NCBI GenBank assembly: GCA_003151625.1
Contig: PLYC01000021.1
Location: forward strand, 16,235-80,234
DNA from: Candidatus Doudnabacteria bacterium
GTDB taxonomy: Bacteria; Patescibacteriota; Doudnabacteria; UBA920
DNA length: 64,000 bases
Reading direction: 5' to 3'
Under the pieces are notes generated by a model. That model was given only the letters and a program-made list of their open reading frames with translations, was not told the origin of the DNA and did no database searches. The position numbers and the translations under genes are program-made. Positions 31,774-42,997 of the stretch are shown piece by piece (position 1 is the first letter of the stretch; every line of letters starts with the position of its first letter).

Positions 31774-33024
31774 TTATTTTAGTTCTCGTTTTCCTGTGAC
31801 TAACTGGGGAATCAAAAGATCGCGAATCTGGGAAAGATTTTGATTTTCATCCTGCAAAGACAATACTAAATCAAAATGTTTTTTTACTAGGTGGCTAAAT
31901 TCATTAAGAATTTCTGAACTTGGAATAATGACCTTAACATCCTTAACTTGTATCGGACTTAAATTTTGCTGGGCAGCACCATTAGACATCCCCTCCAGTT
32001 TTTGCTGAAATCTCTTTTGCCTAAATAATAAGTAAATGTATTCTCTTTTATTTGTTCCCGTTGGATTTAATTTCGCGACTCGTTGATTTAACAAATAATC
32101 TGAACCATATACAACACAAATACGTCCAACATTCCCAGTCAATGAAAGTAGAATGTCACCACTATTCAAAATGCAATTTTCTGGCAATTTTGAAGGTAGG
32201 TCATCAATAAACGAGTCAAAATTTAATACAAATTTTCCATCATGAACATTTTTTATGGTAACTATTTTATACTTTCCGCTTTCTTGGTATGTTGACCCTT
32301 TGAAAGGAAACCCTGAAATAACATTTACGAGTTCACTAATCTTTCCAACTTTCCAACCCTCTGGAATCATACCGTATTCGGTGCCGCTGTTAATCATTTT
32401 TTCTTTTTCATGGCCGGGAAATTTGAATTTTATAAACCACTCGGTATAGAGAAGCTGGGACATTTGCTCCAGGGCTTTGATGCGTTTTTCGTTATTTTCT
32501 ATTAGGTCGTCGTAGGCGGAGAGGACAGAAGCAATGCGTGTTTGGGTTGGGAGCTCTGGAAGCTCAATTTGCAAACCGTAAAGTAAATTTATTGTGTACG
32601 CTTTTTGGGACGATCCAATAGTACATTTATTTAATTCTGATTTACCTTGCGGTGAAAGAAGCCAATAATATAACCATTGACCATTTATTCCATGAAAATT
32701 TCTAAACCATGTTAAATTTCCATCCTTAAAATAAAATTCTTCGTTCTCTTTTACCAAATACGGATTTCCGATTGTTCCGACAGAGGTCAACAATAGATCA
32801 CCCTTTTGAGGCACACCGTATTTGGCCTTTATTTCCTCAAATTTATCTCTAGAAATATATATTAAGTCGCTTACTTCTGCAGAGCTTCTTTGTTTTTCGC
32901 TGATTTCCTTTCCACGATAGAAAGGAACGCCTGATGATAAATACTCATCAGCAAAAATTCTCTTGCTTGAGGTTATTTCACAATAATCCTTAATTTTTAC
33001 TTTTTGAAAACTTACCATAATCAT
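31774..33024 (-). CDS. hsdS: Type I R-M specificity subunit
   Basis: Two TRDs; Q.RIASVLSAYDDLIENN and LSQIRDLLIPQLVTG conserved regions. Confidence 0.95.
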   Translation of the reverse strand: MIMVSFQKVKIKDYCEITSSKRIFADEYLSSGVPFYRGKEISEKQRSSAEVSDLIYISRDKFEEIKAKYGVPQKGDLLLTSVGTIGNPYLVKENEEFYFKDGNLTWFRNFHGINGQWLYYWLLSPQGKSELNKCTIGSSQKAYTINLLYGLQIELPELPTQTRIASVLSAYDDLIENNEKRIKALEQMSQLLYTEWFIKFKFPGHEKEKMINSGTEYGMIPEGWKVGKISELVNVISGFPFKGSTYQESGKYKIVTIKNVHDGKFVLNFDSFIDDLPSKLPENCILNSGDILLSLTGNVGRICVVYGSDYLLNQRVAKLNPTGTNKREYIYLLFRQKRFQQKLEGMSNGAAQQNLSPIQVKDVKVIIPSSEILNEFSHLVKKHFDLVLSLQDENQNLSQIRDLLIPQLVTGKRELK

Positions 33025-34602
33025 TTATAAAATACTTTCCCAATCGTCCTGGATATTTTTTTCCAGCTTGTGAGCTTCGACGGTTAAACCTGTAAATTCA
33101 CTCATTAATTCTTTCATTCGCGCGTTAAAGTCCACATCGCTCATTTCTTTTTCTATAATCTCCACATAACGCCCAGGATTAAGTGAGTAGTCGTTAGCTC
33201 GAATTTCCTCAAGAGTTGCAACTTTGCATCGGCCTTTAATGTCTTGATATTTTTCTTCGCCTTTTTCTTTGCGATAGCGGCGAACAACACCGGCGATTTC
33301 TTGTATTTGCTCATCTGTCCAGTCGCTATGAGCACGGTCAATTTCGGTAAAAATATCTTGCGCGTTTATAAATAAAACTTTGTTTTGCCGTTCGCTGCCG
33401 CTTTTGCGTTTGTCAAAAAACCACAAGGTACAGGAAAGTGTAGCGTTCATAAACATATTTGTGCCAACGGAAACAATTGCATCCACCATTCCGGCGTCTA
33501 CCATTTTTTTGCGGATTTCTTTTTCCGCATTTCCGGCATCACTGGAAGCGTTTGACATAACAAAGCCTGCCCGTCCTTGCGGGTTTAAAGCACTAGCAAA
33601 CATTTGCATCCATAAATAATTAGCGTTGCTGATTTCACCTTTACCAGTAAGCGGCAATCCTAAATTGTATCGCGGGTCGCCTTGAATTTTTGCTGGATCA
33701 ATTACAATTTGTTTGTTCTTGTCTTTGCCTTTTACATTAAACGGCGGATTTGCAAGGACAAAGTCAAAAGCGCCAACGCTGTTAAACGTATCGGTATAAA
33801 AAGAATTTACTTCCGCAATTTTACCCGACAAACCGTGAATAGCTAGGTTCATTTTGGCCGTGCGAATGTTGCTACTACCTTTTTCTTGGCCATACAGTGC
33901 AACTTCGTTCATAACTTGAGTTTTCTTTTCGGAATGCGCTTTAACAAAATTTGCAGACTGCACAAACATACCGCCGCTTCCGCAGGCGGGGTCGTATATT
34001 TTTCCATGGTATGGCTCAATAATTTCTACCAGTAATTTAACAATAGATTGCGGCGTAAAAAACTCGCCGCCTTTGGCTCCTTCGGCGCGCGCAAACTCAC
34101 CAAGGAAATATTCGTAAATTTCCCCGAATGCGTCACCCTCAATGTCATCGGGGATTTGATTAAAATTTTTCAGTAAGGTGATTAATATCTGACTATTTTC
34201 GCCTGGAATTTTGTGAAGCGAAGTATAATCTTGCGGCAAAACACCGGCAAGATCGGTATTTTCTTCTTCTATTGCCTTCATCGCATCATTAATTTTTTTG
34301 CCAATATTTGCACTCTCAGGTAGGCTCATTAAATAAGAATACGTGGCAATTTCTGGCAAATACAGAACACCCTTGGATTTATAATGGTCAGGCGTAATAG
34401 GTTTATTTCTTCCGGAATAAGCTTTAACAGCGCGCTCTGCAACAATCTCCGACTGGAATCTCTTAAAACGTACGTCCGCAAACTTAAGAAAAATAAGCCC
34501 TAAAATTGGCTCGGAAATTTCGTTTAATTTTAGCCCGGAGTTTGCCCGAAGCTGTACCGCCGCAGACCAAAGCCTTTCGTGAAGTTGTTTTCTGGTTGTC
34601 AT
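33025..34602 (-). CDS. hsdM: Type I R-M N6-adenine methyltransferase
   Basis: GEFFTP, YDPACGSGG, NPPF. Confidence 0.97.
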   Translation of the reverse strand: MTTRKQLHERLWSAAVQLRANSGLKLNEISEPILGLIFLKFADVRFKRFQSEIVAERAVKAYSGRNKPITPDHYKSKGVLYLPEIATYSYLMSLPESANIGKKINDAMKAIEEENTDLAGVLPQDYTSLHKIPGENSQILITLLKNFNQIPDDIEGDAFGEIYEYFLGEFARAEGAKGGEFFTPQSIVKLLVEIIEPYHGKIYDPACGSGGMFVQSANFVKAHSEKKTQVMNEVALYGQEKGSSNIRTAKMNLAIHGLSGKIAEVNSFYTDTFNSVGAFDFVLANPPFNVKGKDKNKQIVIDPAKIQGDPRYNLGLPLTGKGEISNANYLWMQMFASALNPQGRAGFVMSNASSDAGNAEKEIRKKMVDAGMVDAIVSVGTNMFMNATLSCTLWFFDKRKSGSERQNKVLFINAQDIFTEIDRAHSDWTDEQIQEIAGVVRRYRKEKGEEKYQDIKGRCKVATLEEIRANDYSLNPGRYVEIIEKEMSDVDFNARMKELMSEFTGLTVEAHKLEKNIQDDWESIL

Positions 34603-34653
34603 ACTAATTTATATTTAAAAATAACTGCTCGCGCTTTAATTTTTAGTCCTTTG

Positions 34654-35922
34654 CTATTTCAATAAATCCTCAAGCTCACAGGAGAGCAGGGCGGATTTGT
34701 TAAGCACGATTTGTTCTTTCTGGTTTAGGTTGTCCGCGGTAAGTCTAATAACTTTTGTGATTATAGCGTTGCCAATAACAACGTGGTTGGTTTTCTTTAA
34801 GTAGTTTTCGGTTTTTTCGTAAAACAGTGTTATAAAGCGCTTTAGCTTGTCGCTTAGTTTATCTTTCATATTTCCCGTAACCAATGCGACTACTTTTTCG
34901 TTTATTTCCGTCGGTATATTCCCCTCCGCGAATACTATCCAATAATCGCTTATGGCATAGGCAAAGCGCACTGGCATTTTATCTTTAGTTTCGTAAAAAT
35001 AAACAAAACGGTAATTCTGGGAACTAAAATCCTGGCCAATGGCTATTTCGCGCAACTCGCCGACTGTATTTATATCGTAAGAGTTTACAAGCCGGAGATA
35101 ATTTTCCAGCCAAGTTTCAAGCCAATGCGTAATAAAAGTCTGATCCACAAATAGCGGAGTTAAATCCTGCTGTAAGTTTGTTTTGTTTACTTTGTTCATT
35201 TGCACGGTCAGCCGGTCAAACAGCGCCTGCAAATGCGTAACATCAACCTCCTTGGCTTTAAGATAGTCCAAATCGGGGACAGTTTTCTTTTCCATATACC
35301 ACAGCAGGTCGTAAATGTCGCGGCCTTTTTCTTCGTATATTTCCTTGCCCACGCCACGCTGTCCACGTAAAAATATAGCGGCAATTTTACTGGCCATAAG
35401 CGCAGACATATTGTAAGTCTTTATTACGAATGACAGCTGGTCGTGGTTTACGGGTATCCGTTCCGTAACCGCTTTGGGAGCCGTAAAATGGTTCAAATCA
35501 ATTTTAACGTGCACCTGTTTTGAAGGGTGGCTCATTCCCAGCTCGTCGCCGATAATGAATTTTAAAAGCAACCCGCGGCCGTTGGTAATTTTTATGTTCA
35601 AAAGATCCGGCCCGGTGCTGTAGGTTTCCAAAAAATGTTCCTGCAACGCTTCCTTAAGGTTGTTAAGCAAGCTGTCGGTAGGGGCTTCCGCAATTTCAAA
35701 ATCCAAATCAACGGACATTCTGTTCAACTCATGGCAAATGCGCAAGGCGGAGCCGCCGTACATAGTCCAATTGCTGTAGACCGGGTGGTGATAAATAAAA
35801 TTTAACAGGTAATACTGCAATTCCTCTTTTAAGGCGTTGCGCTGAACTTCAATATCCACCTGTCCGTAACGAGACAGGTCTTCAAGTTTTCTTTTTAGTA
35901 AAATAATTATTTGGTTATTCAT
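34654..35922 (-). CDS. AbiEii-family nucleotidyltransferase toxin with C-terminal extension
   Basis: YGGSAL...RMSVDLDF, ASKIAA, GRDIYDL. Confidence 0.9.
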   Translation of the reverse strand: MNNQIIILLKRKLEDLSRYGQVDIEVQRNALKEELQYYLLNFIYHHPVYSNWTMYGGSALRICHELNRMSVDLDFEIAEAPTDSLLNNLKEALQEHFLETYSTGPDLLNIKITNGRGLLLKFIIGDELGMSHPSKQVHVKIDLNHFTAPKAVTERIPVNHDQLSFVIKTYNMSALMASKIAAIFLRGQRGVGKEIYEEKGRDIYDLLWYMEKKTVPDLDYLKAKEVDVTHLQALFDRLTVQMNKVNKTNLQQDLTPLFVDQTFITHWLETWLENYLRLVNSYDINTVGELREIAIGQDFSSQNYRFVYFYETKDKMPVRFAYAISDYWIVFAEGNIPTEINEKVVALVTGNMKDKLSDKLKRFITLFYEKTENYLKKTNHVVIGNAIITKVIRLTADNLNQKEQIVLNKSALLSCELEDLLK

Positions 35923-36535
35923 TGTTTAAATATTTTTTAATCATCTCATAAAATAAAGTCTGCTCCTTTTTGTCCATTTCTTCAATATCAATGCGCAGGT
36001 CGCGGATTAGCCCATCCACCATTTCCGGCTTTATCCCCCGAAACTGTCTGGTCTTAAAATACAACAGGTCAAACAATGCTTTGGAAGGCGCGGCAATAAA
36101 AAAATCAAATTTTCCTTTTACCAAAGAGAATCCGGAAAATAATTCTTTTTTAATTGAATTGTAGCCAAAGTTTCCGGCCCGCGTCTGGTAGTCTCTGGTA
36201 ACTTTTAGCGTAACCGAGGTAATAGTCTGGATGGCTTCGGTTGTTAGTTCGTAATACTGCAAAGCCGCCCAGGAGCTGACGTAAGACGGCGTCCTAATGA
36301 CGTTGGCCAGATAAAATTTGTAGGAAATATCCGCCCTGTTGTTTTCGTAAAAGTAAGTTGTTGTATACAGCCCTTTTTTAAACTGGATAATATCCTTGGA
36401 CTTCAAAGAGCGGCCGATATAGCTATCAACCGTGGTATTTTTTAGGCCGTACTGCTTGCTTAACTGGTAAATAGCGCTTTTGTTAAAATACGGCAAACTC
36501 TTGAGCTGTTCTAACAATATTTCTCTATATTTCAT
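35915..36535 (-). CDS. AbiEi-family antitoxin
   Basis: KKGLY, PSYVS..AALQYY, ITSVT, A.PSKALFD; overlaps the abiEii start. Confidence 0.88.
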   Translation of the reverse strand: MKYREILLEQLKSLPYFNKSAIYQLSKQYGLKNTTVDSYIGRSLKSKDIIQFKKGLYTTTYFYENNRADISYKFYLANVIRTPSYVSSWAALQYYELTTEAIQTITSVTLKVTRDYQTRAGNFGYNSIKKELFSGFSLVKGKFDFFIAAPSKALFDLLYFKTRQFRGIKPEMVDGLIRDLRIDIEEMDKKEQTLFYEMIKKYLNNE

Positions 36536-40387: not shown

Positions 40388-40392
40388 TAACA

Positions 40393-40424
40393 AAAAAATC
40401 CGCCAAAAGAGGCGGAATTTTTTT
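40393..40424. terminator. Bidirectional terminator
   Basis: aaaaaatccgcc-aaaaga-ggcgga-attttttt. Confidence 0.7.
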
Positions 40425-40434
40425 ATGTAAGATT

Positions 40435-41022
40435 TTATTGCATTCCACCCTGAGTTAAAGTATGAGACCCCGGCCCCAATGCCCCAACTTTTGTTCCTAT
40501 ACAAAAAGTAATAATATAAGTAGTGGTTACTAACTGAGTTCCGGCGACATTGGCATATATATAATAATCATTGGTGCCATTGCCCGGCCCACCGCCGCAA
40601 GTGCCGTCGGAAGGAAGCACTGTTTTGGGCATCGAACTTAAATAATTCGGGACTAAAAGTCCGGCAATAGTGCCGTTGCCTAGAGCTGCGCCGGGTGTAA
40701 TGGTCGGGTAGCTGTTTTTGTCATTAAAATAAAGTTCAAATGCTTTGGCTAACTGGTTCATATCCGCGACCCTTTTGGCGTCTCTAGCTTTAGTCCTGGC
40801 ACCATTTAGCGCCACTAAAACAACGGAAGCCAAAAGACCAATAATGGCAATAACCACTAAAAGTTCAATTAGGGTAAATCCAGCACCACTTTTTGATTTA
40901 TTTTTAGTATATTTATTTGCAAAGAAAAATCCGACCATTGATAAACACGACCCTAGCCGCTGTTTCAAAGAGTGGTGCTGGGTAAATCCCTGCATATTAT
41001 GATTGATTTTTTTTGTTTCCAT
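40435..41022 (-). CDS. Type IV pilin-like protein with an extended leader
   Basis: [28 protein letters not shown], two Cys. Confidence 0.93.
40872..40989. mobile_element. In-frame MITE-like insertion at the prepilin cleavage site
   Basis: 10-bp direct repeat GGGTAAATCC 108 bp apart, flanking a 15-bp TIR (14/15 match). Confidence 0.8.
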
Positions 41023-41078: not shown

Positions 41079-41654
41079 CTATTGGATAATTTTATCTATA
41101 ATTCCATATTTTTTAGCCTCGTCCGCGGTCATAAAATAGTCTCGGTCGGTATCTTTTTCTATCTTACTTATAGGCTGATTCGTGTGTTTGGCTAAAATGG
41201 CGTTTATTTGATTTTTAATGCGCATCATTTCTCTGGCCTGAATTTCCACGTCCTTTTGCTGGCCTTCCACCCCGCCCATTACCTGATGGATAAGTACGCG
41301 AGCATTGGGCAAGGAAAAACGCTTGCCTTTGGCACCGCAAGCAAGTAAGACAGCGGCGGCCGAAGCGGCCTGTCCCAAACAAATGGTGGAAACATCGGCT
41401 TTAACGTGCTGCATGGTGTCATAAAGAGCCATGGCAGAGGTAACCGACCCGCCCGGGGAATTTATATATAATTTAATGTCTTCTTTGCTGGTTTCGGCGT
41501 CTAAAAATAGCAATTGCGCTATTAGAGTATTGGCAACCGCGTCGTCTATTGGTTCGCCCAAAAAAATAATTCTTTCTTTGAGCAAACGGCTGTAAATATC
41601 GTAAGCCCTCTCCCCCATTGAGGACTTCTCAATCACCATCGGTACTAGAGGCAT
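41079..41654 (-). CDS. clpP: ATP-dependent Clp protease proteolytic subunit
   Basis: [35 protein letters not shown]. Confidence 0.98.
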
Positions 41655-41782: not shown

Positions 41783-42997
41783 CTATTCCTTAGTTTCATC
41801 AGCTTTAACTTCTTCAACTGCTACCGCTTCTTTTGAAGCTTCCGATGTTTCCGCAACAGTTTCCTCGCCACCTAGTTTTTCCCCGTTAATATCTATTTTC
41901 CATCCCGTCAAACGCGCGGCGAGGCGGACGTTTTGTCCGGCTTTGCCAATGGCTAAAGACAACTGATCTTCTAACACGCCGACTTTGGCTTCTTTGGCTT
42001 GGTCGTTTAATTGGACGTTTAAAATTTTGGCCGGTGAAAGAGCGTTGGCAATAAATTTTACCTGGTCATCGGAAAATTCTATAATATCAATTTTCTCCCC
42101 GCCCAGTTCGGCCATTACGGTTTGCACTCGGCTGCCCTTTTGCCCCACGCAACTGCCAATTGGGTCTATGCCGTCCTGGTTACTAAACACGGCAATTTTG
42201 GAGCGCGAACCCGCTTCCCTGGCCAGGGCTTTAATTTCCACACTGCCGTTAAAAATTTCCGGCACTTCCAGTTCAAAAAGCTTGCGCACCATATCGGGAT
42301 GCGAACGGGACAAAGTAATTTTTGGCCCCTTAGTAGCCGGTTCAACATGGAGGATTAAAACTTTTATGCGCTGGCCAATGGTATATTTTTCCCCGCGAAT
42401 TTGCTCGCTGGGGAACAGCACGCCGGCGGCTTTGCCTAAGTCTACCAGCACGGTGTCGCCTTCCACTCTCTGGACAACCCCGTTTTGCAAAGTGCGCTCT
42501 TTGGCTTTGAAATCGGAAAACTGAACATTTCTTTCGGCTTCGCGTAATTTTTGGATAATAACCTGCTTGGCGGTTTGCGCGGCAATGCGGCCGTACGAGG
42601 TGCCGGTTTTGGGAGTGATTTCCGTGCGGATTTCGTCACCGACTTTGTGTTTATGAGATTTTTTTCCGCCGGTCGTTCGAGACCCTGAGGGGTCCTCAGA
42701 CCCCCGAAGGGAGGAGGATCCGCCTTTGGCGGAAATTTCCTGCGCCGCTTCCAGGGTAATGAATTTTTGGGGGTCTTCTTCCGCCTCGGTCTCGGTTTCT
42801 ACCACGGTTTTTACGTCAAAAACTTTGGTAGCCATATTCTCCGGGTCAAATTCCACCACAATATTCTGGTTCTTCTCGCCGTAATCTTTCCGGAAAGCCG
42901 CGGCCAAAGACGCTTCTATCATAGAAACTAAATCCTGGCGGCTAATGCCTTTTTCTTCTGCTATTTGGTCTAAAGCTTGTTCTAGCTGTTCGTTCAT
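41783..42997 (-). CDS. nusA: Transcription termination factor NusA (with in-frame insertion)
   Basis: GRIAAQTAKQVI.Q, S1 domain, AREAGSRSKIAV, AIGKAGQNVRLA. Confidence 0.98.
   Translation of the reverse strand: MNEQLEQALDQIAEEKGISRQDLVSMIEASLAAAFRKDYGEKNQNIVVEFDPENMATKVFDVKTVVETETEAEEDPQKFITLEAAQEISAKGGSSSLRGSEDPSGSRTTGGKKSHKHKVGDEIRTEITPKTGTSYGRIAAQTAKQVIIQKLREAERNVQFSDFKAKERTLQNGVVQRVEGDTVLVDLGKAAGVLFPSEQIRGEKYTIGQRIKVLILHVEPATKGPKITLSRSHPDMVRKLFELEVPEIFNGSVEIKALAREAGSRSKIAVFSNQDGIDPIGSCVGQKGSRVQTVMAELGGEKIDIIEFSDDQVKFIANALSPAKILNVQLNDQAKEAKVGVLEDQLSLAIGKAGQNVRLAARLTGWKIDINGEKLGGEETVAETSEASKEAVAVEEVKADETKE
42662..42735 (-). repeat. 74-bp nested palindromic element in nusA
   Basis: 71/74 identical to 53741-53814. 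Confidence 0.92.

Follow-up and report, generated by a model that had tools for sequence, protein, structure and literature searches.

Bacterial MITEs are shorter than 200 bp, carry terminal inverted repeats, duplicate their target, form an RNA stem-loop and encode no transposase; among comparable elements, the Rickettsia palindromic elements (RPEs), of ~105-146 bp, are read in frame inside proteins (Delihas, 2011; PMC3184786). In Neisseria, the GIY-YIG nuclease SsnA, with the catalytic residues Y6, Y17 and E64, is flanked by NTS repeats, and the NTS-ssnA-NTS unit resembles an insertion sequence (Chenal et al., 2025; PMC11893778). The rRNA genes of CPR bacteria contain GIY-YIG inserts that are not introns, are found either at the top of stem-loops or at their base, and have been judged to lie outside homing (PMC11270868). 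The leader of a prepilin, finally, is cytoplasmic and varies in length, in some cases being very long; prepilin peptidase cleaves it behind its final Gly (PMC10191384).

Here we describe an inverted-repeat element in a type IV prepilin gene of a Candidatus Doudnabacteria bacterium (GCA_003151625.1), located within a window of 64,000 nucleotides (the whole stretch of DNA that was analysed). From sequence comparison, it is probably a gene-less and likely mobile copy, that is a MITE, of a GIY-YIG insertion element of 280-330 bp, and the peptide that it encodes is predicted to leave with the leader of the prepilin.

Results

An inverted-repeat element at the cleavage site of a prepilin

The prepilin gene lies directly downstream of a clpP-like gene (Table 1). 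The first-pass annotation, made from the letters of the window, had reported here a mini-element at the G|FT codons, with a 10-base repeat spaced 108 bases apart around inverted arms. These features are present: the repeat occupies 40872-40881 and 40980-40989, and the arms, before refinement of their ends, 40880-40896 and 40965-40981 (17 nt, 94% complementary). The total gain at the pilin is 108 bases (36 codons), composed of the 106-bp element and a 2-bp duplication. The minus strand of the element folds with -31.5 kcal/mol (z -3.0), equalled by 2 of 200 shuffles; Rfam returned no match over it. Its interior is found once in the genome and resembles neither the 62 other interiors compared with it nor the nuclease ORFs described below. 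In sequence, the element has the terminal inverted repeats, the length below ~400 bp and the lack of a transposase gene that characterize MITEs, and beyond these a target duplication (statistical, not in every copy), filled and empty orthologous sites, and multiple copies.

Table 1. Coordinates of the prepilin gene, the element and their parts within the window.
Feature	Position	Strand	Description	Basis
Type IV prepilin gene	40435..41022	-	195 aa, 48-residue leader	Pfam N_methyl (PF07963) match over cut-off
clpP-like gene	41079..41654	-	synteny anchor for orthologous pilins	named from reading of the translation
Original G-F-T codons, left upstream of the element	40978..40989	-	now followed by QHH	sequence and peptidase rule
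Non-autonomous inverted-repeat element	40878..40983	.	106 bp, ends AY...RT	paired arms and empty orthologs
Upstream terminal arm	40965..40983	-	19 nt, 17/19 complementary to partner arm; encodes T-Q-H-H	covariation over 105 copies
Downstream terminal arm	40878..40896	-	encodes K-S-G-A-G; contributes the codon of Gly(-1) and base 1 of the Phe(+1) codon	sequence and translation
AT-rich element interior	40897..40964	.	between the two arms	
Probable 2-bp target duplication, upstream copy	40984..40985	-	TT	family statistics
Probable 2-bp target duplication, downstream copy	40876..40877	-	TT; bases 2 and 3 of the Phe(+1) codon	family statistics

A chance repeat or an assembly artefact has a negligible probability: a weight-matrix scan of the genome (1.5 Mb, 34 contigs) finds 15 paired copies, against 0, 0 and 0 in three shuffles, the family is present in many other genomes, and a contig of run X1 matches 40635-40970 without difference, although X1 may be the source sample. 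In four DNA runs we found neither a joint across the element nor a piece that spans it.

The leader is basic and not membrane-like (8 K/R and 1 D/E; highest 19-residue hydropathy 0.63, versus 2.66 for the pilin helix). It is hydrophilic and ends in Gly, followed by Phe, a Glu at +5 and a hydrophobic helix, as in class III signal peptides; the cut is predicted between Gly48 (40879-40881) and Phe49 (40876-40878), and the genome encodes a prepilin peptidase (PF01478 match; region of C29:12899-13240). Given the known rules of this peptidase, the 36 inserted residues are likely removed with the leader. The upstream G-F-T-Q-H-H is predicted not to be a peptidase site, because it lacks both Glu+5 and the hydrophobic helix. 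In-frame ATGs are found at 41022, 40995 and 40938, the last inside the element. The protein had been read as starting at MQGFT; the ORF, however, starts with METKK nine codons ahead of it, at 41022, and the closest empty ortholog, in relative G018, begins METKRK (METKRKNCGKL-GFTLIE). Deletion of the 108 bases from the window gene leaves a 12-residue leader, equal in length to that of G018; the ATG at 41022 is thus the likely start, and the insert an addition.

Orthologous prepilins without the element

Orthologs were taken from the 20 best loci in a search of 41 genomes, where clpP is immediately followed by a prepilin gene in 11 of 19 relatives. All 11 of these prepilins lack the arm at their cleavage codon, so that alleles with and without the insert, which the first-pass annotation had proposed to look for, both exist. 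Of two MAFFT alignments made with the ortholog of G018, neither placed more than one side properly; the empty-site comparison rests on the loci described above. A strict pattern of the element occurs in 3 of 19 genomes of the genus and 5 of 401 of the phylum, with 0 matches for the backward control, a patchy distribution as would be expected of a mobile element. In relative G008, the pilin after clpP (L008) has at this cleavage codon an insert of 84 bases whose arms are of another kind, an independent event; arms like those of this insert enclose a GIY-YIG gene at L264, with GA/GA flanks.

The hairpin might alternatively be a domesticated feature that tunes pilin translation or mRNA stability, or that marks pilins for a single-strand nuclease modulating transformation, as NTS and SsnA do in Neisseria. 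Such a role would fit the stable fold, the pairing of the arms, which is maintained by covariation, and the three in-frame ATGs before and inside the hairpin; NTS repeats, too, cluster beside surface-protein genes (PMC11893778). The absence of the element from all 11 orthologs, the unrelated interiors of different lineages, the different element at the same site in G008 and the lack of a cognate nuclease in the assembly nevertheless make this role very unlikely, and favor a mobile, gene-less copy.

Ends of the element and duplication of the target

A scan of GTDB with a right-end pattern gave at least 122 stretches, which were pooled with 18 loci from genomes of the genus and phylum; among the matches listed, a left arm is present for 111 of 145 right ends, and the family is found mostly in Patescibacteria lineages. 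The following counts are for 106 copies among these matches, leaving out duplicates, nested pairings of one tandem array, the false pair L088 and the mis-scored row L090. Prepilin sites hold 62 of the 106 copies and other sites 44, a share that the search inflates by an unquantified amount, as the right-end pattern favors ends preserved by the reading frame of pilins. The survey of pilins proposed in the first-pass annotation has turned up further prepilin sites with the element; that it stays in frame, as at this locus, is not a rule, since only 24 of the 62 prepilin-site copies keep the frame. An in-frame ATG lies upstream of or inside the element in 61 of the 62, and rebuilding of Gly|Phe by the right end is the constant feature of prepilin-site copies. 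Lengths of the short copies peak at 30-49 bp (39/106) and 100-109 bp (43/106), with mostly unrelated interiors.

The true ends of the element are defined by covariation. In 96 of 105 copies among the matches listed (omitting L088, L100, L151, nested rows of L145 and duplicates), the base before the left arm pairs with the base after the right arm (p = 7e-18), while the same end base agrees weakly with its supposed duplicate; the arms therefore begin with AY and end with RT, and the pilin element extends from 40878 to 40983. In the pilin copy itself, these -1/+1 positions form a C.A mismatch, of which there are three among the 105 copies. The 10-base repeat, first taken for the target duplication, is mostly mimicry, since K-S-G-A-G and the opening base of the Phe codon come from the right end; what is duplicated is probably only TT. 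Target duplications of 10 bp or 6 bp are ruled out by the end covariation together with the statistics of the flanks.

These statistics come from 39 distinct nuclease-bearing elements (see below), whose flanks were not selected by the search. Two flanking bases match in 20 of them, versus 7.3 by permutation, and do not match in 19; three bases match in 2. The duplicated pairs include TT, TC, TG, GA, GG, CA and AA. Where the flanks are not of the pilin type, 8 of 19 match at two bases versus 2.6 (p = 0.0007), and within the arm family of the pilin element the TT/TC table reads 22/3/6/8 (p = 0.007). The target duplication is thus probably 2 bp long. It is preceded by T in 31 of the 39 elements and followed by A in 32; the target therefore approximates R-T-N-N-A-Y, and is regenerated at both junctions.

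Several loci of the family show particular arrangements. In L130 and L145, copies stand in tandem, a right end being directly followed by a left end, the form expected of a re-used or circular junction. In L058 and L300, the right end rebuilds a G-G-A-G-F-I-G motif at the start of proteins that we take to be NAD-dependent epimerases, a second kind of tolerated target. In L123, L220, L246 and L259, the insertions lie in TTGACA boxes, with TG duplicated and the hexamer restored by the right end.

A gene-bearing form with a GIY-YIG nuclease

A gene-bearing element with the same inverted repeats, which the first-pass annotation had proposed as a check, does exist: three long copies (L068, L087 and L143; 278-297 bp) enclose a stop-less GIY-YIG ORF (PF01541) that runs on into the pilin. 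All ten longer homologs from a protein search are, by reading, fusions of the nuclease to a prepilin, one of them being the query's own protein. A metagenome scan with the alignment of ten sequences confirmed at least 551 of at least 597 stretches, of which the best 80 were analysed. Of these best 80 nuclease loci, 60 lie between inverted repeats of 14 bp or longer, whereas none of 200 control start codons does; among the 60 bracketed loci, several of which are near-duplicates, 50 have a length of 281-332 bp.

Residues Y5, Y16, G18, R26, H30 and E62 are invariant in the ten aligned nucleases and, matched by position, would correspond to the GIY-YIG active site, with R27 of I-BmoI as the reference for the position of the arginine (PMC3664794). 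The motif is intact in 77 of the best 80 loci; of 465 pairs, the 32 that are unsaturated give a median dN/dS of 0.21. A search of NCBIfam with the nuclease returned nothing over cut-off; TIGR01453 covers residues 4-37 only (26.5 bits, cut-off 56). The best PDB sequence matches are UPF0213 and Slx1 proteins, and an AlphaFold model has a pLDDT of 78.5.

In a tree of the nucleases (77 rows, 80 columns), a prepilin site lies downstream of the ORF in 26 of the 32 rows of one clade, 19 of them fused, versus 3 of 39 rows outside it, and none is antisense; the clade has support 90/91 with the bootstrap not settled, and the kin and near-duplicate contigs in these counts are not independent. Sister clades have related but distinct arms. 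Among 20 loci picked for RNA-like flanks, 9 lie within 16S or 23S rRNA genes, on the sense strand. In L222, L228, L311 and L313, sister elements are followed by AGGAAAGTC, which we take to be the P4 motif of RNase P RNA; the two such flanks tested gave no match in Rfam.

Among 146 genomes of the class, 4 contain the close nuclease clade, and three of these four belong to the family of this genome. The clade is absent from the assembly itself, where the best GIY-YIG protein scores 70 bits (49% identity at best) versus 132-148 bits for members of the close clade; four other element-bearing genomes have no GIY-YIG protein above 83 bits. The interiors of short copies contain no trace of the nuclease ORF, and the notion that they are its remnants was dropped for want of any sequence signal. 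When the genes neighboring the elements were clustered, pilus genes predominated; the nuclease escaped this analysis owing to its fusion to pilins. Carriage by phages was also rejected: 21 viral left-end matches represent one flanking sequence, apparently a single phage gene, without a paired arm, and viral contigs gave 0 matches to the junction pattern and 0 confirmed nucleases.

The gene-bearing form bears on a rival reading, in which a conventional DDE or HUH transposase would move the pilin element as an ordinary MITE and duplicate 6-10 bp of its target, the GIY-YIG gene being mere cargo. The ends can indeed hold other cargo, such as a tRNA-Leu gene in one copy of the genome, which also contains two Y1 transposase genes. 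Neither Y1 gene, however, is bracketed by these arms, paired elements within 3 kb of the right end held 0 transposases and 3 nucleases, the long duplication dissolves under covariation, and the arms differ between clades together with the nucleases, as described above; a conventional transposase is thus quite improbable, and the nuclease is the preferred partner of the ends. A Y1/RAYT transposase or a tyrosine recombinase was rejected as partner, the two Y1 genes being without these arms; the search for a recombinase partner also returned integrase matches.

Copies within the genome and the question of homing

Prepilin G|FT codons hold 4 of the 15 paired copies in the genome, and other sites the remaining 11. 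The enrichment at prepilin sites has p = 2e-7 when compared with 12 such sites among ~3,300 non-coding TTTAY sites, and a strong right arm is present at the cleavage site in 6 of 12 prepilin-like genes, chosen by eye from a list. The first-pass annotation had seen in the element a parasite of a multicopy conserved pilin target: the mobile mini-element and its presence in other pilins hold, whereas the confinement to pilins does not, given the copies elsewhere in this genome and in GTDB.

Three pilin copies have one interior in common. This, the two counts for prepilin genes and the nuclease itself, since GIY-YIG is a known homing-endonuclease fold, could point to homing or gene conversion, in which the nuclease would cut empty prepilin 5' ends and repair would copy the insert from a paralogous pilin by way of the conserved coding sequence for GFTLIE. 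The common interior, however, is also found at a non-pilin site (C28:12907), copies with the same ends lie in unrelated genes and spacers, the 2-bp duplications occur at unrelated targets, the homology between pilin leaders upstream amounts to a few bases, and the interior of the window copy is unique in the genome; the authors of PMC11270868 likewise place the GIY-YIG inserts of rRNA outside homing. Homing is therefore unlikely, and insertion of an element with its own ends is the reading retained. The unfused nuclease ORFs have ~81-100 aa and no two-domain architecture, in which they differ from the homing enzymes of group I introns, and the 20 nuclease loci examined gave one group I intron match, beside the ORF and not around it.

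Two copies in the genome enclose other sequences. At C32:20376-20537 of this genome (G000; in L276), arms of the same family surround the genome's only intact tRNA-Leu(CAG), and the whole unit is located within a broken resident copy of that tRNA; the enclosed gene and its flanks are 95% like the syntenic tRNA of G002, which suggests capture of foreign DNA. At C13:68811-69047, another palindromic repeat is nested within a copy.

Other features of the window

Between the converging pilin and phosphoesterase-like genes, a GC-rich hairpin at 40392-40428 with runs of A and T on either side looks like a two-way terminator. The nusA-like gene contains an in-frame palindromic insert at 42647-42742, whose 14-base motif occurs 17 times in the genome. 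At 31774-36535, S- and M-like genes of a type I restriction system, named from their translations, adjoin an AbiE-like gene pair.

Discussion

A possible mechanism

The probable origin of the pilin element from a GIY-YIG insertion element can be put in terms of a simple, conditional scheme. The nuclease, which would act in trans and which the assembly no longer contains, would recognize the paired ends and introduce nicks, staggered by 2 nt, into a short symmetric target (R-T-N-N-A-Y); the element would then be joined in by host repair, with the 2-bp duplication left behind. Both junctions resemble the target again because the ends are AY and RT. At a GGN-TTT-AC site, the right end would yield K-S-G-A-G|F-T, where prepilin peptidase would cut, freeing a junk peptide from short copies and a folded nuclease from full-length fusions. 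The intermediate could be a single-stranded hairpin or duplex DNA; the conserved pairing of the arms would fit the hairpin. Prepilin sites are probably preferred by this clade of nucleases and also tolerated by selection. We know of no strand-transfer step for a hydrolytic nuclease. A stagger of two nucleotides is in fact observed in other GIY-YIG enzymes: I-BmoI and I-TevI leave 2-nt 3' overhangs (PMC3664794), and the CCGC/GG cut of Cfr42I implies the same (PMC2241918).

A wider reading, which we put forward tentatively and regard as possible rather than probable, would make the family a new class of insertion sequence of ~280 bp, moved by an 80-residue GIY-YIG nuclease without transposase or recombinase. 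Its ends would rebuild their own target, and it would live in sites trimmed or tolerated by the host, namely prepilin cleavage codons, the tips of rRNA helices and TTGACA boxes; fusions of the prepilin clade would release active nuclease through the peptidase, tying mobility to the DNA-uptake pilus, and gene-less copies could carry captured DNA, such as a tRNA gene. Should the nuclease turn out to be the mobilizer, the finding would be new in category. An 80-residue nuclease alone would then move DNA with a defined 2-bp junction, a chemistry known to us from no insertion sequence family, selfish DNA would mask its cost by borrowing the signal peptidase of its host, and an explanation would be at hand for the long and unusual leaders that many pilins of Patescibacteria have.

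Comparison with known systems

One of the two closest described systems is Ssn (cd10448) with its NTS repeats, which carry the SRM pattern. There, as here, a single-domain GIY-YIG protein of about 85-95 aa is flanked by repeats and linked to surface genes and DNA uptake (PMC11893778); the present nuclease has a single domain of ~90 aa with Y5, Y16 and E62, whose equivalence to Y6, Y17 and E64 of SsnA is taken from their position. The architectures differ, in that one pair of terminal arms brackets the gene here, whereas a self-contained hairpin stands on each side of ssnA, and the copies described here lie inside genes, whereas among NTS 2% do (PMC11893778); the probable 2-bp duplication and the prepilin fusions further distinguish the present family. 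The SRM pattern was found in 0 of 111 short copies and 0 of the best 80 nuclease loci, a search that had no true Ssn locus as positive control, and matches once in the genome. By analogy, the element and its nuclease may work like Ssn and NTS; they are not assigned to Ssn, because the SRM pattern is absent (without the positive control). The main text of PMC11893778 contains neither 'Patescibacteria' nor 'CPR'; the present family, with its ends, target and empty alleles defined, would allow a direct test of the idea put forward there, that units of repeat, nuclease and repeat are mobile.

The other close system, the GIY-YIG inserts of rRNA genes in CPR bacteria, is alike in that sister clades of the present nuclease lie inside 16S and 23S rRNA. 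The words 'inverted', 'hairpin' and 'duplicat' are absent from the main text of PMC11270868, whose passages on these inserts give no terminal repeats, gene-less copies or mode of spread; if the wider reading is true, it would account for these inserts, which could not be assigned to homing there.

With MITEs and RPEs, as described in PMC3184786, the pilin element has in common its size, terminal repeats, duplication, stem-loop, lack of a transposase and in-frame reading. It differs in that a GIY-YIG nuclease, rather than any known transposase, is its likely partner, that the interiors are unrelated while the length is held near 40 or 100-109 bp, and that its peptide is predicted to be cut off, whereas that of RPEs is kept in the mature protein. 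A literature search, covering few subscription journals and no supplements, found no description of the prepilin insertion, the nuclease-prepilin fusion or the 2-bp junction.

Inteins and self-splicing introns are selfish DNA at conserved sites, often with a nuclease, that is removed after transcription and leaves the product of the host intact. The pilin element would reach the same end without self-splicing: its peptide would be removed by the prepilin peptidase of the host, at a cut site that is built from the end of the element itself.
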